33,783 nucleotides of DNA from Conidiobolus incongruus B7586 (GCA_000697335.1 JNEM01011368.1:1-33783); one strand, 5' to 3'. Counted from the first letter of the stretch, positions 490-33,100 are shown. Notes: a model not told the origin generated them from the letters alone. Translations and numbers: made by a program.

Positions 490-1965
490 TTAGCGATCTG
501 AGGAGAGAGCTTTATCAATGCCATTAAGCAAAGCTGAAGTACTCTGTAGCATTTGGCTGAGGTTGGCCATTTGTACTTGGAGCTCGCGCTTGTGAGCTGC
601 AAGTGCATCACGGTCAAGAGTATTAACATTCTTGTGGGAATCTAATAAAGGGGAAGATATCAGATGGGATTGTGTGTTCGTAATTTGCTGTGGGAAATTG
701 GGATAGACTTCTCGAATGGATGGGAGAGTAAGTTTTTGGCTGGATTGCATTGATTTTGGTGAATGATAAGGAAGAGATGAGGAAGAAGAAGAGGAAGAGG
801 AGCTATAATTAGAGTTAACTAAAGGAGGTAGAGAAGTACTCTTATAGATTGGTGACACCGATTCGGAATGATGATTTTGAATGGAATGAGGATGGTAAGA
901 AGGCTGAGGAGGAGGTTGAACTGAAAACTTGGATAGAGATGCTGGCATAGAACTGCTAACAGCGGGAGCGGGAGGAGATGTGGGTTTAGGTTGAGTTCGA
1001 ATAGGAGAATAGTTGTCACGAATGGATACTGGTGAAGGTTGGGCTTTAATAGGAGCATAATGGTTGTCAGTATCTTCTTCAATAGTTCTCTTTGCTAACG
1101 CATTCTGATCAATATCAGCTGAGTCGATTGTTGTCTTTTTCTTTGGTCCTAAATAATCTTCAATTGCTGGGACCTCACCATTCAAAGGTTTAGATAAAAC
1201 GATTGGATTAGGATTCCTTTTAACTTTAAAAATAGGCTGATTGGGGCGTGAATGAGGCTTCACAGATGTAGTTGGAGGATCAACGCTCGGTTTTCTTAAT
1301 GGTGAAGGGCTTTCAGTAGGTTGTATATCTGTGTTTTTGGAATTGGCTGGAGTTTCTGAGGATGGGAAAGTATTAATACGTTTGTTACCTACCAACAAAC
1401 GCTTTCTTCGTTTAATCACACTCTTTTTGAGAGATACTGGACGATGAACTTTATGAAGTTTGTAGTATAAACCACATGCATTACATATCGTTTTACCTTC
1501 CTCATCCCTTCTCCAAAGTGGGGTAGTTGTGCTTCCACAATTGCTGCATACAGTCTCTCGCTTAGCTTGATGACTCTGATTATAGACAGGACAACCTCCA
1601 CAGGAGGCAGAACCACCTGTACCATTACATTGACCACTTCCTTTACAAGTTCCCTCACAGTCATTGGTGGGATTCGATAAATTTTCTGGTTTTTTGAGCC
1701 ATGAAGGTCTGAGAGAGCTGCGAGTTTTCAGGTATAAACCACAAGCGTTGCACATAATTGTACCATCGGGAGCTCTCCTCCATAGCGGCGTCTTTGTAGT
1801 TTTGCAGTTTGAGCACATGAGGGCAGTTACTTTAGCTGATCCATCATCTTGATTACAAGATCTCTTTGGTGAGTTGGCTTCTTCTGGTTCGCTAGCACGT
1901 TTACTACCTGGCGAGGGTATATCGTCATAAGAATTGAGATCTCTGATTTCAGTTGAATCATTCAT
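490..1965 (-). CDS. sreA: Iron-responsive GATA repressor of the SreA/Fep1/Urbs1/Sfu1 type (491 aa, no intron evident)
   Basis: Two GATA fingers ([14 protein letters not shown]...CNACGLY and [14 protein letters not shown]...CNACGLY). They flank the Cys-rich linker [20 protein letters not shown] characteristic of Fep1/SreA. A low-complexity middle region is followed by a C-terminal coiled-coil-like segment ([23 protein letters not shown]). Confidence 0.92.
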
Positions 1966-2296
1966 TATTATAATTGATAAAAAAAATGTGATTAACTAAG
2001 ATTGAAAGAGATTAAAAATTAAAACATTAAAATTTTGTCAAATACTTTAATTTATACTAAAATTCAACAATAAAATATCAATCAAATTGTTGATAAAATT
2101 TATCTAATCAGATTTACTCAATTCATTCATCTTACTATTTTTATTTTTTAAAATTCTTATCATCAAATTATCAATTCCCTTTATCAATTGATCAAATCAT
2201 TTTATAACATAACTCTAACCAATCATCTATAGTTATCATCAAATGAGGGTGTAAATTACTTGTCAACTTCCAAATTTAGAAAATTTAAGTTTTTAT

Positions 2297-3999: not shown

Positions 4000-5170
4000 T
4001 TATTCATAATACCAAATCCTCAATATTCTTATCAATAACACTGCTGAATTAAAAAAATTAAAATATATTATGAATAAGTTGAATTTAAGTACTTGGAATA
4101 TTCAGCTGAAAGTGCCTCCCAGCGTCAAGTCTACGATTTTGAAAGAGCTGAAGTTGAATCACAGTGCGATATTCAATTATTTAAGAAGGACGATACAGGC
4201 TGAGAGGTTGAAGGTTGTGATGGGTGGAGAATTGGGGGAGAGTTTTCATAATAATTATCATATGAGTAAGGAGAATTTGGTCTAGTATGGTTTGGTTGTT
4301 GCGAATCCGAGTACGATTAAGGATATTACTATTGGTAAGACGCATTTAGGTCAGGATATTCGAGGTGTTGTGATTACTAATAATATCGAGTCTAAATTGA
4401 CAAATTGAAGCCAAAATTACTAATTCATGGGGGTCAACATGCTGGGGAGTGAATTACAGTTTCTTCCGCTATGTTTTTTAATTGAGAAATTTATCAACTC
4501 CAAGTCCAATATTTTAGATATATTTCAGATTATTCTGATTCCTATTCTGGACGTGGATGACTACGACTATATTTAGGATCAGGATCGATTTTGGGGCATG
4601 AATAGACAGAAAGATCCCAAATCCAATCATATGGGAATTGATCTCAACCGGAATTGGGGCGAGCATTGGGCGCCATCCACTAGGAATCGCTGTAATGAGA
4701 TATACCCTGGGAGTGTAGCTTTTTTAGAGCTCATAATCAAAGCTTTATCCCAATTTATTTTAGATCAGAATAACTTGATAAGATATTTGAATTTGCATGC
4801 GTACAGCCAAGCTTGGATGTATCTGTTCAAATATACTTGTGATCCCAAATTGAAAGTTCAAAATAAATAATATGTGCTATCTTACCAGATGTCGCTTTCT
4901 CTAGCTGAATTTTGAAATACAAAATATCATGAGTTTGGACTTATTTGCAATACAATTTATGCAGCACACGGCAGTTCTGTGGACTAGGCCAATACTCAAG
5001 ATAATATCAAATATTCATCTACTATTGAATTAAGAGATAAAGGTCATTTTGGCTTGTTTTTAACTTAGGGACAGATTATTCCAACTGGTAAGCAGTTGAT
5101 GAGGGGATCGATGTGCTATATTCAAAAACTTAAGCCACTAGTTTATAAGTTTAAAATCGTAAAATATTGA
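4000..5170 (+). pseudogene. Zinc metallocarboxypeptidase (M14A, carboxypeptidase A/B-like) pseudogene; 5' boundary approximate
   Basis: M14 motifs appear in order: HGGQHAGE* (HAREW-like, TGA 4450-4452), DYDYI*DQDRFWGMNR (TAG 4574-4576), GIDLNRNW, CNEIYPGS, LHAYSQ, IYAAHGSSVD* (TAG 4985-4987) and TIELRDKGHFGLFL...QIIPTG. There are multiple stops and frameshifts. Confidence 0.9.
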
Positions 5171-5358
5171 TATATTCAATTAATAATTTTATTGAATGAT
5201 TAATTAAATATATGGTAGTGATTTATCTGAGTTGATTAAATATGAGCATAAAATTTGTTAATAATGAATCATTCAAAGTAATTAATAAATCAGTATTTTT
5301 TTTATCAAAAATCAATTTAATTGCTGAATTAGAAAAATACAAACAAGCCGAAAAAATA

Positions 5359-6225
5359 TTAAAACTTGGCAATAAAGCCCAATCCACCATTTTCGAGACG
5401 ATGGATGGTTTCCGCGACCATTTCCTGTCTCAACATAGCGTAAACACTACCTCCCACGACCATTTTAGGGGCAACAGCTTGAGCGATTTCCTTAGCTTTT
5501 GATAACACTTCTTTCTCAGGAGCAATAGCATCTACTAAATCATTTTCCAAAGCTTCATCAGCTTTAAAGCGATGACCTAACATCAATACCTTTCTAAAGG
5601 TGGAGAATTTGGGGATCTTGCACTGAAGGACACTGGACATACCAGGGGAGAGTGGACCAGGAATGTCAATTTCATTCTAATATAATCATTTAATATATGA
5701 AAAATATCTATAAATCATATTAATTTACCATGCATAAATATCCTCTATCGGACCTCATAACTCTAAAATCATGAGCCATACTAAAAATCTAATACAAATA
5801 AATATGTATCATATAATACAATATTAAAAACAACTTACAAAACCTCCAGCAAATGCGTGACCATTAATAGCAGCAACCGTGGGAATTGGAAATTTCAACA
5901 TAGTAGCCATTAGTTTATGATACATAGCAAAGAAAGGTTCCATACCCACATCTCCAATAGCTTCCAAATTCAACCCATTAGAAAAGATATGCTTCTGGCC
6001 AGTTGTCACCAAAGCTCTGGGGCGTTCTTCCTTTTCGCGCTCATCCCAATAGTGTTTGGCAATGTCGTCTAAAGCTTTTTGGATTTGAGGCATTGATTGG
6101 GGATTGAAACGGTTGTCAGCTTTTACTAAGTGGAGAATATATAAATCACCTTCCATTTCAACCCGACATATGGTATCGTCACCAGCGTTAGGAGGATATG
6201 AAATAGGGAATTGAATAGATGACAT
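5359..6225 (-). CDS. Crotonase-fold enoyl-CoA delta-isomerase/hydratase-like protein, probably peroxisomal (~254 aa; exons 6225-5839, 5788-5729, 5676-5359)
   Basis: Motifs FSNGLNL and PIPTVAAINGHAFAGG|IFSMAHDFRVMRSDRGYLCM|NEIDI. Two GT-AG introns of 50 and 52 nt restore one frame. The C-terminal AKF resembles a PTS1. Confidence 0.9.
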
Positions 6226-7477
6226 TTTTTAATATTATTCTAAATGAATTTTAATTGAATAACTTTGAATTAATAAAAGTGAATTAGAAGGTTTTTATAA
6301 TTTAAAAATTAATTAAATTGTCTCAATATCATATGCTAATTAATTAAATATTCCTAATTTGTTTAAATTTCAATCATATATAAATATATTATCAATAAAA
6401 TTTTGGAATGAAAGTATATACAAATTTGACAGATATTTTTATTAATCAAAGAGATATAAACAAACTTTTATAATAATATCTTAAAATAGTGTTTATTTTT
6501 TTGTAATGAATAAAAGCATTCGAATAGCAATGGAGTTAATTTAAAACTATTCTACTTGAATAAAAAATTCGAATTTAAAACAATTGAGACAAAAATTAGT
6601 TCAAAATTATAATGAACAAATTTTTGGTATTTAAGAGAATGTTAAATCATTTTGATGAAGTAAAATAATAAAAATAACGATATGATAATTATATTCAATA
6701 TTGAGGTTAGTGAATATAGTATTATATTTATAGAAAAGTTTTTAAAATTCTGGGAAAGAAAACATAACCAATAGAGATTACTTTTAATAGTTACTTAAAG
6801 AATTTGATTAAGAACTTTATATATATATGTATAATATAAATTTCAAATTCAACTAAAACAAAAAATAATCACCTAGGTCAAATGAACTGAGGATCATATA
6901 TGTGCTAGACAAGTTTGGTAATCAACTACATTACGAGACTTTATTTTGCATTTCAATATTCTGATGATAATAGTTGATATTCATTGTCACTTTATTTTTA
7001 TAAAAACTTTTCTTGAACATTATTTAAATTTTTTGAGCAATTCAGTCTATAAATATATATATATCATTTTATATTTAATCCAATTATACATTTCAGAATT
7101 ATTTAACCTATTGCTTTTATTGAATCAACATATTATGTTTATTACGATTTCATATTAATAATCTTTAATATATTTTATAACAATTTTTAAATATTGAATA
7201 TATATATATATATATAGATTCCCTATTAATCTTTAACTCCAATTAGTGAATTAATTTAACCTATTTATATAACATTTAATAAATTAATGTCATTAAAATA
7301 TATTTAATTTTTATAAATAATAATTTATTTTATCAAAAAACTAAACAATATACTTTATAAATTCTATAATAATAAATTATTCATAGTATTAACTGTATTA
7401 TTTCTAATTTCATTTACTATTCAACTATAAAATTGAAATTTTCTAAAAAATTGTGAAAGGACCAGTGTTCAAGATAA

Positions 7478-7908
7478 TGATGGGGAATAATCTTGTCTAT
7501 CACTCAAGAAACTCTGACTATTGCACTAATGCAAGAAGTTACATTGGAAGTACCTCATTTTATGAACTAGTTCAACTTATTACTTTCTGTCTGAAGTTAT
7601 TCATAGCCACCTAAACTCAGCAATTGAAACTAATATAAGATTATCACAAGCCAATTAATAAACACTTCTTCCTATCTTCATTTTCAAAAGTATCCAGTCT
7701 CTAAGTTTTTCTTGTAACACTTACAAAAGTGTTGAGTTGTGACAAGTGTGAGATATTTTATTTGAAGAACCCAATTTGCAGTAAGCTAATTTCACCTAAT
7801 TTAGTGAACCCCCTTAATTTCCCTTAACTTTGTGGTAACCTATTGTTTACCACTGGCGATTTCCTGTTTAAGCTCTAAAGTCTATTTCTCCCACATTTAC
7901 AGACGTCA
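7478..7908 (-). mobile_element. Solo-LTR-like dispersed repeat, copy A (orientation given relative to copy B)
   Basis: Its reverse complement aligns along its length with 24014-24450 (shared blocks AATCGCCAGTGGTAAAC, GACTGGATACTTTTGAAA, GTGATAATCTTATATTAG, ACAAGATTATT). Termini are TGA...TCA. It is flanked by ATAA at 7474-7477 and 7909-7912, a candidate 4-bp TSD. Confidence 0.75.
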
Positions 7909-9268: not shown

Positions 9269-9398
9269 CCCTTGAATATTTTTTTATCTTGAAATATTAA
9301 ATTCATCATTAAATAGTTTTGATTATTTACAATATTTTACATAATAGTTAATATTATTGCTTTAAATTATTGTTATTAAAAATAAATAATTACATATA

Positions 9399-12300
9399 AT
9401 GTTTACTGAAAGTGTATCAATTCTTGGAAAAGAATCTATTTTCGTTGGCTATGATTTAATACCAACGATAATTTCAAGTTTATCAAAAGAAAAATTCAGT
9501 AAGGTAGTATTAGTTACTGATCAGAATTTAGCCTCTTTGTACCTTGAACAATGGAATTCCCAATGGGATCAGTTCTACTCTCAACCTGAAGGAAATCAAG
9601 CTCATAAAGAATTTTTTACTTATATCATTCCCCCTGGCGAAGGAAGTAAATCAAGAAAAGTAAAAGCTCAAATAGAAGATTATTTACTTGAGCAAGGATG
9701 TACAAGAGACACATGTTTGATTGCGTTTGGGGGTGGAGTTATTGGGGATTTGGTCGGTTATGTTGCTGCTACTTTTATGAGAGGTGTTCCAGTTATTCAA
9801 GTTCCTACATCCCTATTAGCTATGGTTGATAGTAGTATCGGTGGAAAAACTGCAATCGATACTCCTCACGGAAAGAATTTAATTGGCGCTTTCTGGCAAC
9901 CTCTTGCCGTTTATGTCGACTTGAGTCTTTTACGAACTTTGCCACAACGAGAATTTTTCAATGGAATGGCTGAAATCATCAAAACAGCTGCTATAAGCAA
10001 TGCAGAAGACTTTGAGTTATTAGAGGTAAAGCACTTGGATATGTATCTCTCTGTCTATCCTGATTCACCTAATGAATTTATCGAAGGTAATACAATTTTG
10101 TATTTTTAAATGATTTTGTGTTTATTTTATCAGTCTTAATATTTATTAATAGTTTAAATGATATACTAATATTAACAATTTTCAGGTAAAAAGCTACTTC
10201 AAAAAGTAGTAGTTGGTTCTATCAAATTTAAAGCCCATGTCGTAACAGAAGATGAAAGAGAAAGCGGATTGAGAGGTTTACTCAATTTTGGTCATAGTAT
10301 TGGACATGGTATCGAAGGACTGGTATCCCCTCATTTGCTTCATGGCGAATGTGTTGCCATTGGTATGATTCAAGAAGCTGAAGTTTCCAGAAGTTTAGGA
10401 CATTGCTCTCAAGCCACTATTGCACGTCTTACCAGAGTATTAAAATTATATCAACTTCCTGTTTCTTTAGATGATCCAATCGCTTCAAAGAGACTTCCCA
10501 ACCAATTGAAACATTTAAAAATTGAAGATTTGATGCGAGTCATTAAAGTTGATAAAAAGAATATTGGAGGAAGAAAAAGAATTGTGTTGCTTGCTAGAAT
10601 CGGTGCCACTGTAGAATTACAACCTACTTTCGTTGATGATTATCTTATTGAAAGAGCAATGGCTCCTGCCATTCAAATTCCCAAGTCTTCTCTTAACGAT
10701 ACTTCTGCTGCCGAAATTGCCGTCCCAGGTTCTAAATCTATTTCTAATAGAGCTTTAGTATTGGCTGCTCTTGGTCAAGGGATTTGTAGATTGAAGGGTC
10801 TTCTGCATTCGGATGACACACAAGTCATGTTGGAGGCATTGAGATTATTTGCAGGAATCCAGTATCAATGGGAGGATAATGGTTTAACCCTAGTTATCGA
10901 AGGATGTGGCAATCCTTCCAAATTTGTTGTTCCATCAGTTCCTCTTTACTTGGGTAATGCTGGAACAGCTTCTCGATTCTTGACTTCTATTTGTTGTTTA
11001 GTTCCCCCACAAAATCAACCAGATTCTAATGAAGGTCTTATACTAACTGGCAACGCACGAATGAAGCAAAGACCCATTGGTCCTCTTGTTACAGCACTAA
11101 GAGAAAATGGTGTCGATATCAAATATGTGGAAAATGAAGGCTCTTTACCATTACTTATCAAGCCATCGGCTGGGGGCTTTGCTGGAGGTGAAATTAGACT
11201 TTCTGCGACGGTTTCATCCCAGTACGTCTCCTCAATCTTAATGGCGGCTCCATATGCTAATAAGGAAGTCGTGTTAATACTTGAGGGTGAACATGTCATT
11301 TCTCAGCCTTATATTGATATGACTATAGCTATGATGAAGAGCTTTGGTGTTAACGTTGAAAGGTTATCCGAAACTTCTTATAGAATTCCTGTTCAATCAT
11401 ATGTAAATCCACCAGTTTACCAAGTAGAGGGTGATGCTAGTTCCGCTACTTATCCTCTCGCTCTTGCTGCTATTACAGGTCGTCAAGTTACTGTAACCAA
11501 TCTTGGTAGTGAGTCTCTTCAAGGTGACGCGGGTTTTGCTGTTAAGGTTCTTAAGCCTATGGGATGCCAAGTTACCCAAACTGCTTACACCACTCAAGTG
11601 CAAGGCCCTCCAAAAGGTCAACTCAAATATCTTCCAGATATTGACATGGAGACTTTAACTGATGCCTTTTTAACTGCTTCAGTACTTGCAGCTGTAGCTA
11701 CTGGTCGCCCTGATGATGCTCCTGCCGATCAACCACCGGTTACCAATATTAGTGGTATTGCCAATCAAAGAGTTAAAGAGTGTGATAGAATTGCTGCCAT
11801 GGTCACAGAATTAGCTAAATTCGGAGTGAAGAGCTGGGAGCTGCCTGATGGTATTGCCATTCAAGCATCCCGATATGATCAATTAAAAGCTCCTGTTGAA
11901 GGGGTTCATTGCTATGATGATCATCGTGTTGCTATGAGCTTCAGTATTTTAGGTTGTATCGTTCCTGATACTATTATTAATGAAAAACTTTGCGTTGGAA
12001 AAACTTGGCCTAACTGGTGGGACGATCTTAGCCGCTGCCTCAAAGTCACTGCTTATGGTGTTGAAGTTCCACGTCCTATTCACAAGTTAGAAAGATCTAT
12101 TTCATCTCAAAATCCCAGCATCTTTATTATTGGTATGCGTGGAGTCGGAAAGACTACATCTGGAAAGATAGGTGCTAGCCATTTGAATATGGACTTCATC
12201 GATCTTGACGAATATTACCAGGAAGTTTACCAAATCTCAGTTAGAGAAACAGTTGAAAAAGAAGGATGGGAGGTGTTCAGAGACAAAGAACATCGATTAT

Positions 12301-14336
12301 TATTAAAGGTATTGGCTGAGTTCCCTAATAATACTTTAATTTCTTGTGGTGGAGGTATTATTGAAATGGAAGAAAACTGTAAACTCCTCATAGATTATGG
12401 AAACAATGGTGGAATAGTTTTGCATCTCAGAAATGATGATATTGAGAGTATTGAGCAATATTTAAATCGAGATATTTCAAGACCTGCTTATTCTGGTGCT
12501 GAAAGTATTCGAGAAGTTTGGAAACGCCGTTGTCCATTGTATGAAAGATGCAGCAATTATGAGTATAATATAATTAATCCAAGTTTGGATAACTGGAAAT
12601 TGGTTAAAGTTGATTTTATTGAATTTTTAAAGAATATTAGCAACCCAAGACCCATTCCTGCTTATTCACCCGATATTTCAAGCTTTTTCGTTTGTTTAAC
12701 TAGTCATAATATTTCTGAGGTCAAGGAACAATTAACAAATATTATTCAAGGATGCCAAGCTGTTGAACTTAGAGTTGATTTACTTAACCCCCCTAATTCG
12801 CCTAATGCCCAAATCTTAGATTTTAGCACTGAACAAGAATTGTATACCTTCGAAAGATATGTCGCTTTACAAGTAACTGAATTGAGACACATTGTTAAAA
12901 AGCTTCCTATTATTTATACGTTAAGAACCAAGAGTGAAGGAGGAAGATTATCTAATTCTTTACCTTTACCTTTCTTGAAGAGATTATTTAAACTTGGTTT
13001 CCAATTAGGTTGTCAATTGATTGATATTGAGATGAATCTTGATGTTCAACAAATTTTGTCTGATTTACCCAGCTTTCGAGGAACTTCCAAAATTATTGCC
13101 TCATTTCATGACTTAAATGGTCAGCTTGATTGGGGAGAAGCTAATTGCTACGAAAAGATTAAACAAGGATCTTTGTATGGAGATATTGTCAAATTGGTTT
13201 CAGTAGCTCAAAATATGGAAAATAACATGAAATTAGAGAGTTTTTTGGGCGATTATTATTCGAAATTATCTCAATTCAACAACATTCCTTTGATTGCTCT
13301 TAATATGGGTTCTAATGGACAACTATCACGTATTCTAAATAGATATCTCACCCCTGTAACACATCCTGCTCTTCCTACAAAAGCTGCACCAGGCCAATTA
13401 ACCGTTCAACAAATCAATTATGCTCGACATCTTTTAGGTTTAATCCCTGCTAAAGATTTATACTTGTTTGGCACTCCCATCTCCCAATCACCATCTCCTT
13501 CAATACATAATAGCTGGTTCCAAGCTCTTGGATTTCCACACAAATACCAACTCTGCGAAACAGATCAAATCGATGTAATGAGAAAGGTTGTCCAAAGTCC
13601 AGCTTTTGGTGGGGCTAATTGCACCATCCCAACTAAAGAAATTGGTATAGAACTTGTGGAAGAACTTTCAGAATCAGCTAGAATAATTGGTGCGATCAAC
13701 ACAATTTATTGGGGTGATTCCCAAGATAAAAAGAAACGTATACTCAAGGGAGATAACACTGATTGGCTCGCATTATTCAACAAAATCAACGAAAAACTCG
13801 AAGGAGACAAACCTGATTCTAATAGATCCGCTTTGGTATTAGGAGCTGGTGGTACTGCCAGAGCCAGTTTATATTCTTTATACAAGGCTGGGTTCGAGAC
13901 TATCTATTTGTATAATAGAACTCATTCTAAAGCCAAGCTATTAGCTCAGCATTTTGAAAAACTTTTCAAGATCATAGTAGTTGATGAAAATGTCAATATC
14001 GCTGATTTCTTCAGTAATAATTCTAACTCTCAAGTTAAACCGCCTCAGATCATTGTAGATACCCTACCTGGCTCTGCTCAAGTGTTGACAAATGAGCTCG
14101 AAACTGCTTTATTTAATTCATTTAACTCTCAATCTAGATCTAAAAATATAACTGTTCGTTTTGCCTATGCCAAATATCCAAGTAAACAGTCTACCCAAGA
14201 AGCAAGTTTAATTTCTGCTGGGGATTCTTCTAACAAGGATTCGAATTCGATAGAAGAAATTACTGGTCTTGAATTGTTAAGGGAACAAGCTAAATATGGA
14301 TTCCAATTATGGACTGGTATTTTCCCTGAATATTAG
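9399..14336 (+). CDS. ARO1: Pentafunctional AROM polypeptide (~1612 aa; exons 9399-10086 and 10186-14336)
   Basis: DHQ synthase ([31 protein letters not shown]), EPSP synthase ([30 protein letters not shown]), shikimate kinase (GMRGVGKT), type I dehydroquinase (VELRVDLL) and shikimate dehydrogenase (GAINT, NTDW, GAGGTA). A 99-nt GT-AG intron at 10087-10185 joins the two listed ORFs in frame. Confidence 0.98.
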
Positions 14337-14569
14337 GGAATATGTTTATTGTTAATGAAATTATTTTGATAATATATATTCAAATAATCAAATATTTCAA
14401 TTAATCCTATTTCTTTTTATATCATATAAAAAAGGAAATCTAAATTTATTAAATATAAGATCCTTAATACTATAAATTCTCATGCATTCTTTTGATCAAT
14501 AGATTAAATCGATCTTTCAAATTTATACATTTGAAATACTTTCATAATATTACAATCCATTAAGGAGCC

Positions 14570-17265
14570 AAATTTAATGATTGCTATGCTAGTATGGCCA
14601 TTAGTCATAGTTTATTACCAACAATTGGGTTGACATTTTTTATCCATGGATCCTTTAAATTTATTTTTATCAAATAAAATATTTTATGTGAAATATTATA
14701 TAATAGTTTAATCGTTGATTACTTTTCCGAAATATGGTTCTATATCAAAACATTGCGATTGGTACAAGCTCATGATGTTACCAAAACAACAGGCTACAAT
14801 ATTAATTAAATTTTATTTGGTATATTTTGAAGGTATTTGTCCCCAAAAATCACTTGAAACTGAAATTCTACCTGTATTAAAAATTATTGGTCATGCTTTT
14901 AAATATTTTGAAATTATCCCTATTGATAGAGTCTATTTTAATGATGAGAGATGTAAATATATTTTTCGCTTCAATATTTGAATATTTAAAATATATTGCT
15001 AGTAGTTGAATGCATCAAACAATATGGTCTTAATGAAGATGTTCAAAAACTCCAACCTCATTTAACTTTAAAGTAACACTTAAAAATTTTATAAAAAATA
15101 TTGTTTATTTAATGTAGATATTATGGGTTGGCGGCTTTAGCATGACTATTCAAGTAAATAAAACACACAAATTACATTAAATTTAATAATATTGGTAGAT
15201 ATATGGAATTTTATATAAAAACCTTTTTCCCTCAAAGTTCTGAACATATTGTATGTACAGATGCAAAAGGTAAAATAATAGCTAAATTATGAGATCATCT
15301 AAATATTGGTTATGTAAGTTCTATGATAATTTGTAGTTTAATTTGAAAATAAAAAACTATTACTAAAAAATATTAGATCCGTATATTTGTGCACCAATGA
15401 AATCATTAAGAGATATTGATACTAATGCTTTTAAACATTATTTTTGAAGATTAAATTCCATTATTAATACCTTTATTATTTTTATTGAAAAACGATGCAA
15501 TAGACAATACCTCTACAAAAATGTGAGCAATGAATTGAATATTAGTATTGATATTCAATTATTAAAATGGTTTAGTCAATCACCTGAAATTCAACATTAA
15601 TCAATTATTAATTGGTGAATATAAATGAAATACAAATACATTTTCTAAATATATTTATACGAAAATACAGTGGAAACTAGACTGAACCGTATTGAAGGTA
15701 AGGTTTTAATCAAATTTAAAAATAAAACTAAATAATAACTTTGAATATTATCCTATCCCATTATGTAAACTAAATTGATATATCCATTGTTAAATTAAGC
15801 GATTATTTAAAAAATTATCAGTTTGATTAATAAATGTGCTCATAATTAAATCAAATTCAAAAAACAGCAGTTAATAATATCAAAGTTATTTGTATATGAA
15901 TCATTTCATGATGTAGATTTTATCAGGAAATATGCATTAGATATCATTTCAAATTTTAAAAGCCTAATATTTATATAGGCGAATAACGAAAACAGTTCAA
16001 TCAAGCATTTGGAACAAAATTTTATATTAGTTTCAAAAAATGGATTAGATTTAATTGCAAATATAATTCAACTTAAGTATATTTAAAAATCATTTGATTC
16101 AAAATATATATGAGATTAATAATATCTTTAAGTCGATTGTAGAAATATGAAATATGTATTGTGAAAAATACAGGAAATAATACAAACTAATCAATGAAAA
16201 ATAAATTGTCTATTAAATGTTTTTTCAATCGAAACCATTGGTTTGAATAACCTTTCTCAATCAAATAATCCAATATATATTATAAGGTTAATATAATTAA
16301 ATTCTTCATTAGGATAGGATTAACTTAAATAATGTGCAAATAATAGCCTACGATGCTGGTAATATAAATTAATTTTTCAGCCTGAAAAACTTATTCAAAA
16401 AATATTGATAATATATTTGCATTAGTCAATGAATATAAATGTATTTTTATGATCTATGCTTAACATATATTATAAACACAAAATTAGCTCAGCTCTCATT
16501 AGCATCTCAACTTAAATATATCACTAATTACGAGTATCAGATTCAAATTTCAAAAGTTCAAAGTCGTATTAATTACCTAATATTTTTCCAAGAGGATCTA
16601 AAAAAACAATATGGCATATCTAACAACCTTAGATATAATAGGACATTAAATAATATTGATCAAGTACAGATTATTCAATAGTCTGAGTTAAATGAAGGAA
16701 TGAAGCATTCACTTGATGAAGTTGATTTAATTTCAAATGAGTAATAGGAATTTTATCAACAGTTCTAATATTGAGTAAAATCAAACAAAATATAAGAATA
16801 TTATATAAGCTCCCTCAATCTATTTCATTCCTTGATATGATGGTCAGTTTCGCAATTCATGCTTCCAAACATTGTTTAGATATTTAGCATTTGAATATTA
16901 TTTCAATTTTTAATTATCGTTTATTGAAACTGATATTTGGGAAATACGACAATAAAAATTTCTGATATACAATTTTATATAGTGAAATTCAATCAAAATG
17001 TTCTCCAAACAATATATTATTCTCTTAGAATAAAAGCTTTTCAATCATAACTTGACCTACTATGAGTGGAAAACAATTTTCTTAAATCAAGTCACACTTG
17101 AATATATTATAGCAAAAATTAGAAGATAGTAAATATTTTTCAATTTTTCATTTATTAGTATCCCAGTAAAATTTAAAAATATCAAACTAAATAATCAAAT
17201 ATTAGATTATTATTCTCAATAATCTGAATTTTTATTCAAATTTATCATCTCAACAAGAGTTAGAT
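14570..17265 (+). pseudogene. MSH4: MSH4-like (meiotic MutS-gamma) multi-exon pseudogene; boundaries approximate
   Basis: Collinear fragments: IIPIDRVYFNDE; KYYGLAALA*LFK|YMEFYIKTFFPQSSEHIVC (15119-15270, with GT-AG introns); TVETRLNRIE; TYSKNIDNIFALVNEY; LYKLPQSISFLDMMVSFA (16801 onward). The ATPase region reads PNNILFS*NKSFSIIT*PTMSGK, then after a frameshift TIFLNQVTLEYIIAKI (17005-17125). These recall MSH4 KYYCLAAAAALLKYVE, LYKLSDTVSMLDML and IITGPNMSGKSTYLKQIAL. Confidence 0.82.
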
Positions 17266-17269
17266 TGAA

Positions 17270-18515
17270 TTTAATATATAAGTATAGAAATTAAGAAATG
17301 GCAAATTTTTTAATTTCTGATCTTTCAAACATATTATATATTCAATTTTAATTATTTATTTATTAAAATATTTTAATTTTAAAATTTACACTTAAATTTA
17401 ATTATGTTTAAATTAGATAGCAATTATTAAAAGGCTTTTATTTTTATATCTTTAAAACTTAACTATAAACCCTTTAAAATTATTTAAAACTTATAAATAA
17501 TTTATAAAGATATTATTTTATTTAAAACTACTATATATCACTAGATTTGTAATTTTAAAGTTAAAAGGAATATTATTTAAAATTTGTTAAAATTTAAAAG
17601 ATTAGTTTCTATTATTACTCTTTTATTTATTAATAATATAAAAAAATATTCAATAATATCTTTTTATTTTTGTTAAAAAATTATTAAAGTAATTTAATAT
17701 TAATTATATAAGCATATTATATATATTTAAGTTTAAACTTAAATTAATTAATAAAAATATATAATAAATACTTTATAATTTAACAAAAGCTTAAAAAAAA
17801 ACTAAAGTAACTATAGTTAAATTAAATTTATTAAGGTATAATTAAAAACAAAGGTTTTTACAAAAAATATTTATAATTAATAAATTTTAAATTTTTTTAT
17901 ATAATCTTTTACTTAAAAATAAAACAAAATATTAAGTTAAATTAATCCTTTTTATAAATTTTAATAAATAAACATTTTAAATACAAGTGAATGTTAATTA
18001 TTATAATAGATTATAATAGTATATGGTTTTTTTATTTAATACCTTAAGGAGAATTAATTAATAACAAATTATATATTATTTCTTTATATAAAATAATTTT
18101 TAAATAATGTTTTTAATATAAATTAAAGATATATATTATTTTATATAATAATTATAAAATATATAAAGTTATAAAAGATTTTTTATATAAGAAAATAGAA
18201 AAAGTTATTACATCTAGTATATTTACTTAATTATCACTTATATAATTATAATTGTTTTAAATAATTAAAAAAACAACTTATAAGAAAAAAATTCCTATAA
18301 ACAAATTAAATTAATTTATAAAATATCAAATTTTAATCCTTAATAAAAAAAACTATTTTTCAAATATTAAAAGCTTACTAAAAATATAGAAAAAAGTTAT
18401 TAATAATAAAAGAGGCTATTAATTTTATATTATTTATTAATTTTTATATATTGTTTATTAATTTATTTGTTTAATTTCAATTTCAAAATTGTAATATTAC
18501 TTTATATTAATATTT
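17270..18515 (+). mobile_element. Hypermutated mariner (Tc1/mariner, DD34D-type) transposon; transposase relic ~17404-18422
   Basis: Reversing C->T and G->A changes recovers mariner motifs in order. TTIYH*ICNFK...NLLKFKRL ~ W...F...DLPRSGRP (17527-17604); *ILYNLTKA*K ~ WIPHNLTEAQK (17765-17797); FLQKIFIINKF*IFLYNL ~ ..TIDE.WI..YDP (17855-17908); MLIIIIDYNSI...IP*GELINNKLY; ILYNN ~ ILHDN (18138-18152); *KKLLHLVYLLN ~ WE.LPHPAYSPD (18196-18231); NIKSLLKI*KKVINNKRGY* ~ GI..LP.RW.KVI...G.Y (18363-18422). Length ~1.25 kb. TIR boundaries are uncertain. Confidence 0.88.
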
Positions 18516-19792
18516 TACACCATACATTAAGTTCAAATTTGTTTCAAATTAAAGGATTTAGTTAAAATATTTGGTTTAATATGATATTAAATATTATTTA
18601 CTTTTTATCAATTTGGTATTTCTCAATATTTATTAAGATTATTGTTCACTGTATTCAAAAAATTAATATCTTCAAAGGTAATCAATTCTAATAAAAATAA
18701 GAATATATTAACTTTTATCATCTATTACATTTTTTTCAACACATTTTACTGGATCCTCAATTTATTTTTTGAATCATTCAACTGTAAACACTCCAAAGTT
18801 TAGCATTGTAGTATATTTTAATACCAATGACTTTTGAAATTATTATTTATTCATAAATAGAAATTAAAATTTCAGGGCAAAAATGTATCACTTAAAATTA
18901 TAATTTTTCCAGTGGATTTGAGCAAAAAAAGACATTATAGCAAGTTTCAAATGATTTTAAATTGAATTATAATTAGAATTTCAAGATTAAACTGACCAAA
19001 CAGGTCCGATACGATCTTTTATAAATGCAGCTAGTAGAATCTCCAATGAGATAACTATATATAAATTGGTTTCATAATATTAATAGAGATGTAATATTAG
19101 TCTTGACAAGGGAAATCTAGTTATACGATTTTTGTATAAAGCCAACAAAAATATTATAAAATATCAACATTCAAATATATAATGAATAAATACAATGTTA
19201 ATAAATACTCATGGTTTCAGATAGTATAATTTATATTATTAAAAAACAAAAATGGGCCAAGGATTAACAAGACCAAATTATTAATTCAAGCCAAAGATAT
19301 GAACTAATACACAATATAAGTATATATATATATATCTAACATGATTAACTTGTAGGCTTATCCTAAACATTTAAATTTATACTACATATAATTGGAAATT
19401 ATCTTTTATATATATTCACTAATATAGAAGCTTCCTGATTTGAAATATAGTTGTATGGTTATATATCGTAATAGTTATAGTATCAAAACTTTTTATGAAA
19501 CAGAGTACTCAATTCATCCCTCATTTTGAATTAAATCACTTAAAATTTATTGAAATAAGTTCAATTTCTTCATCAATATTAGAATACAAAGATAAATAAA
19601 GTCACTGTTTAGTTACATGTTAAAAGAGAAATTCGGTAAAGGATAATAGTATAACATCTATATTAAATAAATATTTAATTGAATATAAATAAACATTATT
19701 AATGGGAATTAATTTTTGTGATAAAAAGTTACACAAATATAAAATTTCTAGTATGTCAGGTTGATAAACGAAAGTTATTTAAAATAAATATT

Positions 19793-20283
19793 TTAAGCGG
19801 AAGGGTTTTCCGTTTTTTTTGGAGGTTCTTCTGGGGTAGTTCCAATCTCGAGATCTATTCTTTCTTTGGCTCTGAAAATCTTAGACTGTAGATAAAATGA
19901 ACCACCTTTAGTTGGGTCATTAATATTAAATAAATGCTCATATTTCTAAAAAACTAATATTAGTATTTGTGTTAATAGATTTTAATAATATTAATAATAA
20001 ACCTTTTTAATCTCTTCAACTTTGGCATCCTTTTCAACATTCAAAATTTGATAAGCTTCTTGTAAAGTAATACCAGTTTGGCGGGAAATAGGGTCATTAG
20101 CAGTTTTTGCGGCGGCTGAAGCACCTTGAGTGGCAGCATCTATATAAATTATTAGTTAATATATTAAAAATAAAAAATTTTAACCAAATTACTAGCAGCA
20201 GCAACTTTATAAGCGTCAACAAAAGCTCTTCCCAAAATAGTGGCACCACTGATAATTACTTGTGCAATAGCTCTAGCAGACAT
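19793..20283 (-). CDS. PAM16: Mitochondrial import motor subunit Pam16/Tim16 (~126 aa; exons 20283-20193, 20139-20003, 19945-19793)
   Basis: Spliced translation [31 protein letters not shown]...[13 protein letters not shown]...[30 protein letters not shown] matches the Pam16 J-like domain. Introns are GT-AG and in frame. Confidence 0.95.
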
Positions 20284-20992
20284 TATTTATAATCTTTTTT
20301 TAATTATTAAAATAAATAATAGTTAAAGGTTTAGTTAGATTTAATTATCTATTTAATTCAATTAAATGTAACAAAGAATTTATTTATATCTGGAAATTCG
20401 ATTGAAACATTTATAATATATTTTAATATTATAAAATTATGGGATATTTTGATCAATTTTAATCCATCAAAAATATTCTAGAAACTAAAAAAAGAATTGA
20501 TTTATAGAAATAAAGAATGATTTCACAAAAAAAATAGATTAACTAAAAAAATATACCTTATGTTTGAAATAATGCTTAGGGTGAATTAAAAATTTAAGTC
20601 AAATTATTATCTTAATATTACCGTTATATTTAAATCAAAGGTATAAATAAATATCTCACAATTGTTAATAAAAATATTTAATTACATACTGCTAATCAGA
20701 AAATTATGAAATTAAAAGGGTAAAAGAATCGATACAAAGTGTTGATAATATAAATTGTTTGATGAAAATAATTAATTTTAAACTAACCTTTTGTTTTTTA
20801 AATATTAATTATATATCAATTATTGAATAAATTAGTTTTAAGGAACTTAAAACCAGAAAATAGAATCCCATAAAAGAAAATTTTAGAAACAGAATATTTA
20901 TAAACTTTGTTAATTGAAAAAAATATGCATTAAATATACAAAAAAATTTATTCATTAATAAATATATTTAATATTAAATTGTTTTTTCGAAA

Positions 20993-22189
20993 ATGGTCAA
21001 AAAACATAATGTCCAAGTATCCGTGAATAACATCGATGGAACCCAATTTTCTGGTCCTTATCTCACTCCTATTTCAGGGTTTTTGCCTCCAAATAATATA
21101 CAATATCAAGGCTATTATAAGGATAAATCAGTTCATCAAAGAATATTATATGGCGAAAATGACAAAATGGAATATACTTTGAGCAATACTGGTTCCGATG
21201 CTCAATACGGCGTGAACAGCCAATATTTAGTAGGTATTTATGATCCTGAAACTAAATCTGTCACCTTTCAACCCGCACCTTTTCTCCACATGAATCGTGA
21301 AGTTAAGGTCCTTAAGACGCTTTCTGGTGCCAACGAAGCGGCCACCAAATCATATGTTGAATCTGTTGAAGCTTTGGGTCAAGAATTTGGTACCAAGAAG
21401 AAACGCTCTGAAATTGCCATGAAGAAGAAAAACACTGTTGATGTGTCTACCATGCAAAATGATTTGGATCAAATTTCAGGTTCTATTAAAGCTGAAGCTA
21501 ATCCAGAAAATTTGGATCCTCTTGTTGGATTCAAACAGACTCTTCCTACTTTCAGCCTTACTGCCAAGAATCCAGAAGATATTTACAACTTGAAGACTTT
21601 CTTCAACAACCAACTTTTAAACACTCTTCCAATTGGCAAGCTTTTGAATTGCACAGATCCCAAAGAGCTCGATCAGCTTATGACTTACCCTCAATCCAAG
21701 TTTTTACACGCTCATCTCAGCGAGCATTTGGGTACCTCTGGACCTAAGAATAAGGATATTATCAAGAAGCTCCAATTTATTGGCCTTATGATGAAATTAT
21801 ACAGTGCCTCTCGTGATGCAATCGCCAACCCCACTAAATTAAAGAATTTGTTCAAGAATTTCACCAGCGTTGGTGACGTTCTCATTGAGCACTTCACTGA
21901 AATCTCTCAAAATTTTGGAAGCAAAGCCACAAGAGTTTTGCCAGATAACTTGAAGACTAAGCTCGCATGCCACATCATCGTTATGATTCTCACCCTCAGC
22001 AACTATCAAATCGATTTGGTTACCCTTGCAAGTGACTTGAAGATCGATTTAAATCGCGCTACTCAACTGGCCTTCCTTGTAGGTTGTAAACCTGCATCTT
22101 TCGGTAAAGGCAACTCCGCCACTTCCAAGGTGTTCAAATTGGTTGCTCCTCTTTCTTTACAAACTGAATCCAAAAAGAGACGTAAATAG
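20993..22189 (+). CDS. RPA49: RNA polymerase I subunit A49/PAF53-like protein (398 aa)
   Basis: Intact ORF with QYLVGIYDPETKSVTFQPAP, LGQEFGTKKKR, LPTFSLTAKNPEDIY, KLACHIIVMILTL...LASDLKI...VGCK and LVAPL, plus a basic C-terminus. These are typical of the A49 family. Confidence 0.88.
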   Translation: MVKKHNVQVSVNNIDGTQFSGPYLTPISGFLPPNNIQYQGYYKDKSVHQRILYGENDKMEYTLSNTGSDAQYGVNSQYLVGIYDPETKSVTFQPAPFLHMNREVKVLKTLSGANEAATKSYVESVEALGQEFGTKKKRSEIAMKKKNTVDVSTMQNDLDQISGSIKAEANPENLDPLVGFKQTLPTFSLTAKNPEDIYNLKTFFNNQLLNTLPIGKLLNCTDPKELDQLMTYPQSKFLHAHLSEHLGTSGPKNKDIIKKLQFIGLMMKLYSASRDAIANPTKLKNLFKNFTSVGDVLIEHFTEISQNFGSKATRVLPDNLKTKLACHIIVMILTLSNYQIDLVTLASDLKIDLNRATQLAFLVGCKPASFGKGNSATSKVFKLVAPLSLQTESKKRRK

Positions 22190-24013: not shown

Positions 24014-24450
24014 TGACAACCGTAATTGTGGGAGAAAATAGACTTTTAGAACTTAAACGCGGAATCGCCAGTGGTAAACGATAGATTACCACAGAGTTAG
24101 GGGAAATTAATGGGGCTCACCAAATGAGGTGAAAATGGCTTACTATAATTCGGGTTCTTCAAGTAAAGTGAATATCTCATGCTTGTCATGACTCAATACT
24201 TTTGTGAGGGCTACGGGGAAAACTTAGGGACTGGATACTTTTGAAATGAAGATAAAATAGATATGTTTATTAGTTCATTCGTGATAATCTTATATTAGCT
24301 TTCATTGCTGATTTTTATGAATAGGAATGACTCAGTGATAGAAAGAAACACAACCACTCAGTTCAGGAAATGGGTGTTCCCCAATGTGACTTCTCGATTC
24401 AGTGTGGTAATCACAGTTCCTTGAAGGATTAACAAGATTATTTCCTATCA
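24014..24450 (+). mobile_element. Solo-LTR-like dispersed repeat, copy B
   Basis: GC-richer island running TGACAACC...TTCCTATCA, homologous in inverted orientation to 7478-7908. No clean TSD (TTTA vs GTCA). Confidence 0.72.
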
Positions 24451-28256: not shown

Positions 28257-30194
28257 TCAGGAACTTATATCAAAACCTAACTTGAGTGAAATACTCTTTA
28301 GCTTAGGCAATAAATCCTTGAAAGGGGCATAGTTTTGACTACTTAGCTCAATCTGTTGATAAATAATTTTGAGAGACTCTCTCATTTCTGGCTGAGCACT
28401 AAGTGGTAAGTGGGGATATTCTTGAAAGCAGATTGTAGCTGCTCTAATAATATAAATATATCGAAAACTAACAAAATTAGGAGGGTATAGTGCGGTAATA
28501 TGAGCCAATTGACGACTAGAATTGATCAGTCTTTTCATTTGACTTGAAGGCAAGGGCGAGGATGTATCTGAATTGGCGTGGGGTCGCAGAGAATTTACAA
28601 TAATACTAAAGGTCTTAAGCATAAGAACAAATCCCCACACAAATGGAGTGATAATCGAGTGGGCAGTTAGATCTGTATACTTGCGACTGAGATTGGTGAA
28701 ATGAGTCAATCCAAAAATATATCCGCAATCTAGAGAAATATTTACAATTCGAATATGTTCTAAAAGTCGTTCAGGAGAAATAATTTCGGTTGGGTCTTGC
28801 GGGGAACTCAGTTTCCGAATATGATAAGCAACAGGCAAAACAAACTTTTCAAGGATATATCGAAATAAATACAGGCATTTAGGTTGGATTTGGTCAATAA
28901 TATGGTTATGATGATCATCTTGACTATTTTCGGGACTCGAGTTAGGACTACATTTCTGGTACCAGAACATATGTTGGTTGGGTACAATACCATTTGGAAG
29001 GTCAAATTTATGAATAAAGCTTAAATTCAAAGGTATGTATCCGTTTTTAGAGATGATACCGGATGAAATACAGTTAGGGCTGTATTCAGTTTTTCTGAAA
29101 TATACCTCTGGGATGAAAGAATCCGTATTAAAAAATGAATTCCCAGAAATATCGAAAGATATAAGGATATTCCAAATATTGGCCCTATTCATTGTTCGAT
29201 CATATAAAAATTTAGGTTCCAAGCGGTGTAAGCCCAGACTGTAAGCAATTCGTATTGCTTGTGTGAGAAAAAATTTGCACAATGATATATTGTTGGAATA
29301 GCCTATGGAGTTGGCCATGATCATCATTGCATACATTAGAGGGAAACGGTCATTGTAGTACATTTTACTGATCTGTCTCAGTGAATATTCCTTCAAGTAT
29401 TGACAAAGAAAAGGATCCTGGTTCGGACGACATAAATATCCAATATAATACATGGCTGAAAGTAAACAAGGAGAGGTTTTTAAACGGTTTTGTTGAAATC
29501 CTTTAAGGTCGAAGATTGGGTAAAATATATGGACTCTATTGATATAAATATCAATTAGTTCATTCCAAAATTGAGGATCAAAAAGATTTTGAAAACTGTC
29601 GCTCTGAATTAGCTTGGACAAATGAGATCCTTCCAAATTTAATTCTGCGAGGCGGCCTTGAAGCTTCAAGAAGAAAGCCGAGCTATCGGGATTGGTAATA
29701 ATTGATGGAGTTGAATTAGTTTTTCCAACCAAAAAGTCAATAGACGAAGAGCTATGGGGTAATGACAATAATTCTTCTATCTTGCTTTTATCCGAACTGA
29801 GTAAAGCCAAAAGCAATTTCTTGCCTATAGGTGTTAAGTCAGTGTTAAGATTTAGTGAACTACTTAATTTAGATGAAGGTATATATTCAACTAATCTTTT
29901 TTTAGAAATCTGCATATCATTTCTTGGACTAGGTATACCATACTCTATTAAATGTTTTTGAGAGTTAATTATTTCATTTTGTTTAATTTCATTCAAATTA
30001 TATTGTGGTAAAGTATCAATGAAATGCGTCTTCTTCTGTTTTTGGCGACCTTTGAAATTATAATAACACGGAACTTTACGTTTTGTACAACGAATACAGG
30101 CAGGTAGTTGGCGATCGCATTTCACCCTTCTCTCTCTACAGTCAGTACAGGAAACGACGCTAACCCTCTCATTGACTGCAAACTGAACAATCAT
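28257..30194 (-). CDS. Zn(II)2Cys6 fungal transcription factor with middle homology region (645 aa)
   Basis: CTDCRERRVKCDRQLPACIRCTKRKVPC binuclear cluster. LIDIYINRVHIFYPIFD and QAIRIAYSLGLH...RANIWNILISFD resemble the fungal-specific TF domain. Confidence 0.92.
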   Translation of the reverse strand: MIVQFAVNERVSVVSCTDCRERRVKCDRQLPACIRCTKRKVPCYYNFKGRQKQKKTHFIDTLPQYNLNEIKQNEIINSQKHLIEYGIPSPRNDMQISKKRLVEYIPSSKLSSSLNLNTDLTPIGKKLLLALLSSDKSKIEELLSLPHSSSSIDFLVGKTNSTPSIITNPDSSAFFLKLQGRLAELNLEGSHLSKLIQSDSFQNLFDPQFWNELIDIYINRVHIFYPIFDLKGFQQNRLKTSPCLLSAMYYIGYLCRPNQDPFLCQYLKEYSLRQISKMYYNDRFPLMYAMMIMANSIGYSNNISLCKFFLTQAIRIAYSLGLHRLEPKFLYDRTMNRANIWNILISFDISGNSFFNTDSFIPEVYFRKTEYSPNCISSGIISKNGYIPLNLSFIHKFDLPNGIVPNQHMFWYQKCSPNSSPENSQDDHHNHIIDQIQPKCLYLFRYILEKFVLPVAYHIRKLSSPQDPTEIISPERLLEHIRIVNISLDCGYIFGLTHFTNLSRKYTDLTAHSIITPFVWGFVLMLKTFSIIVNSLRPHANSDTSSPLPSSQMKRLINSSRQLAHITALYPPNFVSFRYIYIIRAATICFQEYPHLPLSAQPEMRESLKIIYQQIELSSQNYAPFKDLLPKLKSISLKLGFDISS

Positions 30195-33100
30195 AATAGC
30201 ATTTAATAAATGTATTGATTAGATATAAACAAAGACTATGTGGCAATTTTATATTTGGTAATGATTTAATTAAAATTAATATTGATAAAATATATAAAAT
30301 CAAAATAATTCACTTTGAATAAATGAAACTCATTAATTATAATTAAATGTAAAAACTTAATTATTAATTCTTCAAAACAAGCAAGTTGATTGGATGATTA
30401 GGAACCAGTCTTTTTCTCATCTCTTAATCAAGTTGCCACATTTTTAAAATCATTTTGTTGTCACATTATATTATTAATTATTAGCATTACTTTTATCCAT
30501 TTTATTTTCTAGAATGCCCACTTCACTCCAGGATATGTTAAACTGCCTATTAATAGCAAAAACTCCTGATATATTTTTCAATTTAGAACCCATCAGATTT
30601 TGAAGTACCAAACGTACTTTGTAACACTTGGTGAACCTGTATGGTGCATGTTTCCAGTTTCAAATTTGCTTATGTTTTTTAATCAAAATTTAATTATATT
30701 TGAATTATCATGAACATCCGTTTAAATTATATTTTAGAACCTTGAAGGTGTATTGCTATCAAAAATATTTTTTTGTTGCTCAAATATTGGGAAATTTTTC
30801 GGGATTCAAAAGTAGTTTGTCTTAACTCAATAAAATCATAGCGATCACAGAGTAATTAAAGTAAATCTGAATTAAGATTATAGTGTGTGATAAGTTTAAT
30901 GATGCTGGAAAAATATAATAGCTTAAGAAAATCCATTTTTATTATTTAAAAATTCATTTGAACTTTGGGTTTGATGCTTATGAATGATCTAAAGTTATTG
31001 ATATGCTTATTTAACGTACAATACATTGTGTAATTATTATACATTATTGTTTGTTATAAAATAAATAAACTATCTGTATATTCAATGAATTTATTAGCTA
31101 TTAATATTTGAAACCATTCCATTTAATTAAATATAATTTAGAAATAAAATGAGGGTTTTGAAATTTTAACAACTATCCGAAAATTTTCCTTATCAACCAC
31201 TAATCTTTCATTACTTTCTGATTAATTTGCGGTTTTATTTACAGCAAATTTATTGAATAATTTAATAAACAAATTTAAATTGATCTGAATTCTAATCAAA
31301 ACATTGTATACTTCAATATCATGGTTTCATGGTTTCATTGTTCCATATTTGAAATATATTTCTTTGCAGATATTAATCATTTAGTGATCTATATTAAAGA
31401 GTAACCAGTATCCTAAGCAGTGTAATAAGAAATAGTACACCCAAACAGTAATTACAAATCAAACCATTTTGAAGAGTGTTTTGATATTTGAATCATATAA
31501 TCCAAAGTAATGGTTAAATGATCATATTTTGTTTCTCTTTATTAATTTAATCGAGTCATGGGCTACTTTCTATTCTGAACAAGCCTTTAACCGCTGATAC
31601 CATTGCTATTTGAAAATATTATAGTCTTTTTAGGTATATGATTTTGCTCTGTTTTGAAAAAACTTTAAATACTATTTCCTTATTATCTAAACTGGTAGTG
31701 TCACAAAATCAATATCTGGTCCTATATTCTCAAAAATTATCTCATAATTATATTCTAATATTGTTTGAACCATACGGATTAGCACCTCTAAGAATATCTC
31801 CTATCATGATGCTTTTAAGCTAGAACATTATTTTTAGATTCTATATCCATTATTTTCCAAATTTAAAATAAATATTTGAATATAATACAAAATTAATTAA
31901 TTTAATATAATCAATTAAATTTGAGCATATTAACTTTAGAATCTTAAGTTATTTTATCTCAATTTTAAGTTGTTTTAGAATAAGCCAATCAAAGCTCTGA
32001 TTGTATTCAATAGACTTATATAATGTTTAATCAACTTTATAAATTTCAGTTGAGAGTGAATAAATTAATATTCATCTATTAACTCGTTTGTTGATTTTTA
32101 GAAAGTTTGTGAAAGGACTTATCTTGCTTGTTTCCGGATATTGGATTCAATATTCAACTTGTGTAATATTCCATGATTAAATATTTAAATTATTACAACT
32201 GTACAAATATAGAATATATCATCTGATTATAACATTAAAAACATCTTATAGTTCCGTTTTCATATATTACTTATTATTTATACTTTAATTAAACAAATAT
32301 AATAGTATAGTAATTCGATACTTTATATAATTTTGTTAAATATACAAAGTGAGTTTATAAATGGTTATATGAAAGCTTGCTAGAAAATATAATAAAATCA
32401 ACGTCAGTATATTACAATGGATTTTTGTAAAATATTCAGCTAAATCAATGAGATACAGATTAAATTTAAAGATCGCATTATCTATTACTGCATGCGATCA
32501 AAATTAAACTATGTACATTATCGATTGCCACAAATTTGGCAGTATTTTAACTTTGACTCAGTTTTTAAATTATTTTCAACATTTCTCTACACTCACTAGA
32601 TATAAAAGGAACAAATAGCGAAGACAATTATAATATTGTGAAAAACAATCCCAGTTTAATTGATTATTAAAAATTTGAATAATTAGCCTTTGAAACAGAT
32701 GTAACCAAATATAATTGAATTTATTATTGAAATGCACTTTAAAATTAATGATTGAATAATTATTATTTTTTGACTAATTTGGTAAATTGAACAACATAAT
32801 AATTATTTTTTCTTATTTCAATTAGTTTATTAAAATATAACTTGAATTTATTCTACTTTGCCTGAATAAATAAAACATCAGGATCAATATTAAGTAAATG
32901 GATATTAGATTTATTTTTTAGATAATTCGACTTTTATTTTAAATTATTTAATATACAATAATTTTTGTTATGATACACAATAAATATTTAAAGTGAATAT
33001 TTTATAAATTTTTATCTATAACTGATATATTAAAATATTTTAAATCTATAATTCAAGTATAAATTTAAAATAATCATTATTTTGAGAAATTTCCACAGTT

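Follow-up and report, generated by a model that had tools for sequence, protein, structure and literature searches.

Outside meiosis a cell can do without MSH4 and MSH5, and decay of these genes is known from fungi. Aspergillus nidulans and A. rugulosus are described as having Msh4 and Msh5 pseudogenes; in the available passages of that preprint, they were found by synteny, and their degraded remnants evade ortholog searches (bioRxiv 10.1101/750497). Among the budding yeasts, ZMM genes have been lost repeatedly, the K. lactis MSH5 is frameshifted (PMC11460703), and ZMM gene loss is also described in Lachancea (PMC9851511). In the portions of these two papers drawn on here, the MutS-gamma genes of Lachancea and K. 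lactis are lost or broken though meiosis persists, which marks the pathway as dispensable (PMC9851511, PMC11460703).

The locus considered here lies in a 33,783-nucleotide stretch of DNA from Conidiobolus incongruus B7586, analysed as a whole and called the window below, with positions counted from its first letter. It resembles the Aspergillus cases in that a meiosis-type MutS gene appears to be decaying between neighbours (bioRxiv 10.1101/750497, available passages). However, the window relic is far more decayed than the Aspergillus pseudogenes, to the point of having zero matches in the public libraries, and its neighbour is ARO1, a gene not mentioned in the available passages of the Aspergillus preprint (bioRxiv 10.1101/750497). 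Moreover, as the accessible parts of these sources present them, the paralog in Aspergillus was fixed by synteny together with intact orthologs in congeners, and the yeast cases stand on whole-genome inventories and recombination maps, whereas the Conidiobolus relic is known from one locus. The main reading, to which a probability of roughly 0.7 is given, is that 16768-17073 is a MutS-family remnant and that the surrounding 2.7-kb AT-rich stretch is likely a decayed MSH4, possibly an MSH5.

A dead MutS-family gene beside ARO1

In this fungal window, the GC content is 35-42% in genes and drops to 10-15% in spacers. The product of ARO1, which bounds the relic upstream (Table 1), matches the Pfam families DHQ_synthase, DHQS_C, EPSP_synthase, SKI, DHquinase_I, Shikimate_dh_N and Shikimate_DH. 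A metagenome scan for syntenic relatives, conducted via the C-terminal half of ARO1, returned 56 pattern matches and 0 relatives. Elsewhere in the window, exons of an M14 zinc carboxypeptidase (4010-5500, plus strand) and of an enoyl-CoA hydratase (5359-6228, minus strand) appear to overlap or abut at ~5360-5500. Two segments with codon-usage signal (58.6 and 36.8 bits) lie on the minus strand at 19797-20283, within an apparent AT-rich spacer, and probably mark a small intron-containing gene that is not annotated. An inverted repeat has its arms at 7613-7879 and 24045-24315, with 16 kb between them; it is made up of three adjoining pieces of 123, 76 and 57 nt, and the arms are 81-85% complementary, with no long ORF in either.

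The MutS-like block was located with a profile HMM of 867 positions built from prokaryotic proteins: 120 mutS loci were fetched by a P-loop pattern, and selection for an open frame of 780-1000 aa left 73 of them. Scanned without filters against all six read-through frames of the window (67,562 residues), the profile has a single match, at 16768-17073 in frame 0, which covers HMM positions 539-629 with an E-value of 1.2e-4. The score of the region 14300-17400 is 13.3 bits, a value reached by 0 of 500 dinucleotide shuffles (six frames each), the best of which scores 1.6. In a profile-profile comparison by hhalign, the read-through of 16741-17172 aligns to the MutS alignment with a probability of 94.4% and an E-value of 9e-8, over 90 columns at 27% identity.

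The match resolves into two blocks, collinear and in the same frame: one is the helix closing domain III, the other leads up to the Walker A motif and covers its start. The seed sequences of the HMM were selected on a Ser-containing Walker A motif, a choice that slightly favours block 2 and has no bearing on block 1. A separate line of evidence comes from the ESM Atlas, in which the nearest named clusters to the stop-free 48-aa ORF at 16741-16884 carry MutS_IV (18 of 30 matches, score 0.90); 4-10 of 100 shuffled proteins also reach 0.9, but for any family and not for MutS in particular. Judged by profile similarity to the core domains, 16768-17073, and only this part of the stretch, belongs to the MutS family.

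This MutS-family gene is dead, and a stop codon occupies the place of its Walker A glycine. The sequence-only reading had listed the first and the last two of the stops in Table 1, and all three are present; it had also proposed that the last of them replaces the Walker A Gly, and this is what the HMM alignment displays, with ITGPNMSGK of the profile facing IIT-stop-PTMSGK of the window. Four stops (16885, 16963, 17026 and 17053) fall within 102 aligned codons and are confirmed by contigs, so no open reading frame is found even allowing for splicing. The Walker A consensus GxxxxGK[S/T] is not intact: in addition to the TGA on its first Gly, Thr stands for Asn and Gln follows GK. With these stops, the loss of both the Gly and the Ser/Thr of Walker A, and no remaining ATPase match, the window copy cannot give rise to a working MutS protein. 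Across the wider stretch, each plus-strand frame of 14570-17265 has 76-78 stops per 898 codons, and 14400-17399 has 83 stops in 1000 codons; this is no lower than by chance, since 253 of 1000 shuffles contain as few stops or fewer.

The lesions were checked against Logan contigs assembled from sequencing runs. Four runs of one sample, possibly the source of the assembly, contain the stretch, and their contigs are not an independent sample. Contigs of two of these runs, X1 and X4, cover 14300-17300 with 0 differences; consequently, the lesions do not stem from one assembler alone and, as far as the contigs show, are not assembly errors. Two other runs with the same species label, X5 and X7, are uninformative, with 1 and 0 contigs aligned.

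Like prokaryotic MutS and like MSH2, MSH3 and MSH6, the relic has an LD..SFA helix and, leading into the P-loop, the ...PN...ITGPNM.GK segment. Unlike them, it has no detected domain I, Walker B or C-terminal part, carries four in-frame stops, and has had its P-loop Gly and Ser/Thr destroyed.

Table 1. Features of the window; the asterisk marks a stop codon, and HMM positions refer to the MutS profile
Feature	Position	Strand	Remarks
GATA factor	490-1995	-	
ARO1 (pentafunctional AROM), intact	9390-14336	+	one intron at ~10087-10185; upstream neighbour bounding the relic
Putative upstream body of the dead gene	14570-16767	+	AT-rich, stop-riddled; resemblance to printed Arabidopsis MSH4/MSH5 by eye only
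TGA	15143-15145	+	present in the sequence
MutS block 1: helix ending LD..SFA (end of MutS domain III)	16768-16872	+	frame 0; HMM 539-573, 8.9 bits; hhalign
TAG, in frame	16885-16887	+	within the MutS-aligned stretch
TGA, in frame	16963-16965	+	within the MutS-aligned stretch
MutS block 2: ATPase Walker A approach and start (…PNN…IIT*PTMSGK)	16999-17073	+	frame 0; HMM 605-629, 11.5 bits
TAG, in frame	17026-17028	+	nine codons ahead of Walker A
TGA on the Walker A glycine	17053-17055	+	later GK, then Q, not S/T
Possible last trace of the gene	17074-17265	+	no match past MutS position 629
RNA polymerase I subunit A49	20978-22189		
Zn2Cys6 transcription factor	28257-30218	-	

Of the collinear MSH4 fragments that the sequence-only reading had drawn across the whole stretch, those within 16768-17073 hold as MutS-like by HMM and hhalign, whereas 14570-16767 has no match by either tool. 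Throughout the roughly 2.2 kb upstream of 16768, the MutS HMM scores at most 0.7 bits, and six read-through fragments from there have hhalign probabilities of at most 0.4%, as do seven of the eight read-through fragments of the stretch taken together. The best local hhalign alignments of the upstream fragments fall roughly in MutS order, each of them insignificant. The longest plus-strand ORFs in 14570-17265 are 89 and 80 aa, versus at most 53 aa on the other strand, and a second-longest ORF of at least 80 aa is found in 4 of 1000 dinucleotide shuffles. By codon-usage log-odds, the best plus-strand segments of the stretch reach 12.7-14.3 bits versus 8-13 in spacers, i.e., no coding signal remains. 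Comparison by eye would extend the collinearity over 14570-16767 and would add the lesion at 15143, a frameshift after Walker A and the putative introns; intron models drawn by eye (GT..AG plus branch-like sites) give no consistent frames.

On the downstream side, the plus frames of 14300-17400 have no HMM match beyond position 629, either to the Walker B / DE..GRGT signature or to the C-terminal dimerisation part, and the fragment 17133-17291 has an hhalign probability of 0.1%. The 3' third of the dead gene would have been deleted or have decayed past recognition. Right after the relic, 17300-19700 forms about 2.4 kb at 10-15% GC; this AT-rich segment may be a replacement of the dead gene's 3' third.

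The diverged second copy of the locus

The sequence-only reading had tied its biological conclusions to the premise that this is the only copy, and that premise fails as stated: the same sample carries a second copy, ~85% identical, joined to an ARO1 3' end. In runs X1 and X4, this version of the sequence downstream of ARO1 is present at equal depth, 20.5 and 19 versus 19.8 and 17.3 in X1, and 12.8 and 10.3 versus 9.2-13.9 in X4. It is made up of contigs of 901 and 3080 bases, which align to the window at about 82-87% in blocks at 14582-15204, 15179-15636, 15903-16109, 16373-16529, 16670-16872 and 16954-17073, and its ends rejoin the window, one at the ARO1 3' end, where 14380 is joined to 14582, and the other from 17219 onward. 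The unalignable stretches between the blocks have similar lengths in the two copies (266/265, 263/285, 140/146 and 81/88 bases), which fits introns or faster-decaying parts and proves neither. Retained introns, from which the sequence-only reading argued for decay in place and against a retrocopy, are putative here.

Inside the alignable blocks, the second copy differs from the window by many 1-2-base indels; among the differences listed, it has gained a TAA at 15287-15289 and lost one base at 15291. Substitutions between the copies comprise 82 AT>GC, 68 GC>AT and 35 A<>T changes, with 115 transitions and 80 transversions. Since the changes are balanced, the second copy and the relic are similarly AT-rich, the GC content of the former being far below that of intact genes.

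The equal depth of this copy and its joint to an ARO1 3' end would be expected if a working gene remained, either as the 85% second copy or elsewhere in the genome, with the window holding a dead allele or a duplicate. But the second copy is not G+C-richer than the relic (a net +14 AT>GC over the aligned pieces), whereas intact genes have 35-39% GC, and its many short indels, extra TAA and lost base also speak against this reading; a surviving working copy is unlikely. Instead, the second copy is likely a similarly decayed second haplotype, although as a sequence it fits a decayed haplotype, a homeolog or a duplicate alike. The presence of so diverged a copy suggests that the genome is a heterozygous diploid, dikaryotic or hybrid one, or else that the segment is duplicated. 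A more specific proposal, namely that a deeply decayed MutS-gamma relic beside ARO1 is common to the two haplotypes of a fungus that is heterozygous, dikaryotic or hybrid, and that the class I machinery died before the ~15% divergence, is decidedly doubtful; were it true, the lineage would be an old ZMM-less one, possibly long clonal or of hybrid origin. As it points to a heterozygous or hybrid genome, the second diverged copy may outweigh the relic itself in importance.

MSH4, MSH5 or another paralog

The MutS-family relic is likely a MutS-gamma gene, with MSH4 tentatively put somewhat ahead of MSH5. These two are the most likely candidates because they can be spared outside meiosis and decay in other fungi, because the N-terminus of an MSH6-type protein would not fit between the blocks and ARO1, and because the blocks resemble the printed plant MSH4 and MSH5 sequences. 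The label of MSH4-like pseudogene, given to the stretch beforehand, stands as far as a dead MutS-family gene is concerned; its MSH4 part is putative, the by-eye comparison with Arabidopsis being split between MSH4 and MSH5.

In the sequences printed in the available part of the source, the Arabidopsis P-loop is GPNMSGKS in MSH4 and GPNYSGKS in MSH5, and the helix reads LDMIVNSFA in MSH4 and LDCILSLA in MSH5 (PMC9957857). Compared with them by eye and scored by hand, the relic's LDMMVSFA is nearer MSH4 than MSH5, whereas the PNN...IIT.P.MSGK block is nearer MSH5 except for Met versus Tyr; the middle pieces are a draw (PMC9957857). The relic P-loop, TMSGKQ, is not diagnostic of MSH4, since NMSGKS is common in prokaryotic MutS too. 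A metagenome pattern aimed at MSH4, combining the P-loop with a downstream motif, also fits the bacterial EMN variant; all 120 loci that it returned are bacterial-type MutS, at 369-1170 bits to the MutS HMM, and no MSH4 was obtained.

MSH4 and MSH5 lack the mismatch-binding domain I at the N-terminus; in the MutS HMM scan, this domain has no match anywhere in the window, an outcome that decay could also produce. If the relic were a decayed duplicate or fragment of MSH1, MSH2 or MSH3, it would be silent on crossover pathways. The significant block does match a generic prokaryotic MutS profile, and the homology supported by tools is confined to 16768-17073, so the relic could be no more than a fragment. 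However, about 2.5 kb separate the ARO1 stop (14336) from the LD..SFA block (~16830), which leaves no room for the N-terminus of an MSH6-type protein and little for that of MSH3, by lengths taken from PDB chains and from general knowledge. Furthermore, eukaryotic mismatch-repair paralogs have Gly at the P-loop position where the relic has Ser, and the two long plus-strand ORFs upstream hint that more of the sequence there was once coding. An origin from MSH1, MSH2 or MSH3 is thus improbable, and a decayed MSH4 or MSH5 is the preferred assignment.

Mode of decay and significance

The relic has a GC content of 23%, versus 38% in ARO1, yet AT-richness is genome-wide, as GC3 is only 26% in ARO1. 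RIP is indicated by TpA/ApT above about 0.89 and (CpA+TpG)/(ApC+GpT) below about 1.03; in 14570-17265 these indices are 0.80 and 1.59, on the other side of both thresholds, and in ARO1 they are 0.79 and 1.41. The link to RIP drawn by the sequence-only reading is therefore unsupported, the indices of the relic resembling those of an intact gene. Within the window, the relic has no repeat partner. The gene would have died long ago and drifted to an AT-rich neutral composition by ordinary mutation, not RIP.

That RIP killed the gene, in which case the lesions would date from a sexual cycle, is very improbable. RIP would be in keeping with an AT-rich stretch next to spacers of 10-15% GC and with the TpA/ApT of 1.08 and substrate index of 0.91 in the 1-kb bin 17001-18000. 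But the AT bias extends to the whole genome, the relic as a whole has indices like those of intact genes and lacks a partner in the window, 80 of the 195 differences between the copies are transversions and the changes are equal in both directions, and a TGA cannot arise from a Gly codon via C>T or G>A alone.

Searches of public libraries were blank. Pfam has 0 matches both for the three read-through frames at E<=1 and for 48 stop-to-stop ORFs at E<=10. In the PDB, whose MutS-family content comprises MutS, MSH2, MSH3, MSH6 and MutS2 and includes no MSH4 or MSH5, phmmer with four read-through pieces picks out nothing of the MutS family; one of the pieces, 16741-17265, has 0 matches at E<=10, and the chains returned for the others are noise (artemis, colicin and others; E 0.2-8). 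A word-index protein search with frame residues 775-925 yielded 176 candidates, none of them at E<=10, and an exhaustive phmmer search with 15367-17172 against 1.84 billion representative proteins found no MutS; its 2 matches were rejected as tandem-repeat proteins, with scores summed over repeats and nonsense Pfam matches. The 89-aa ORF has no usable match in the ESM Atlas.

These blanks, together with the missing coding-potential signal and a stop density no lower than in shuffles (253/1000), are what ordinary AT-rich spacer with coincidental MutS-like motifs would give, but chance resemblance is hardly credible when every one of 500 shuffles stays more than 11 bits below the real score, the hhalign E-value is 9e-8, the match is the sole one in 67,562 translated residues and the ESM Atlas independently points to MutS. 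The relic is a real and very old MutS-family pseudogene, likely of MSH4 or MSH5. Relics of this age escape Pfam, the PDB and billion-sequence searches, and a local family-profile test alone finds them.

The inference of lost sex from a lost MSH4, likewise drawn in the sequence-only reading, is weak, given the Msh4/Msh5 pseudogenes of sexual Aspergillus and the repeated ZMM losses of yeasts, as reported in the available parts of these sources (bioRxiv 10.1101/750497, PMC11460703). Because dead MutS-gamma genes are known in fungi that retain meiosis, the relic alone can show neither loss of sex nor loss of the crossover pathway. If it is MSH4 or MSH5 and the genome holds no intact copy, crossovers in this fungus, if any, would take place without MutS-gamma, like those of fission yeast, Lachancea and Aspergillus nidulans. 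The locus would then call for no new mechanism and would be one more data point on how frequently the interfering crossover pathway is lost.
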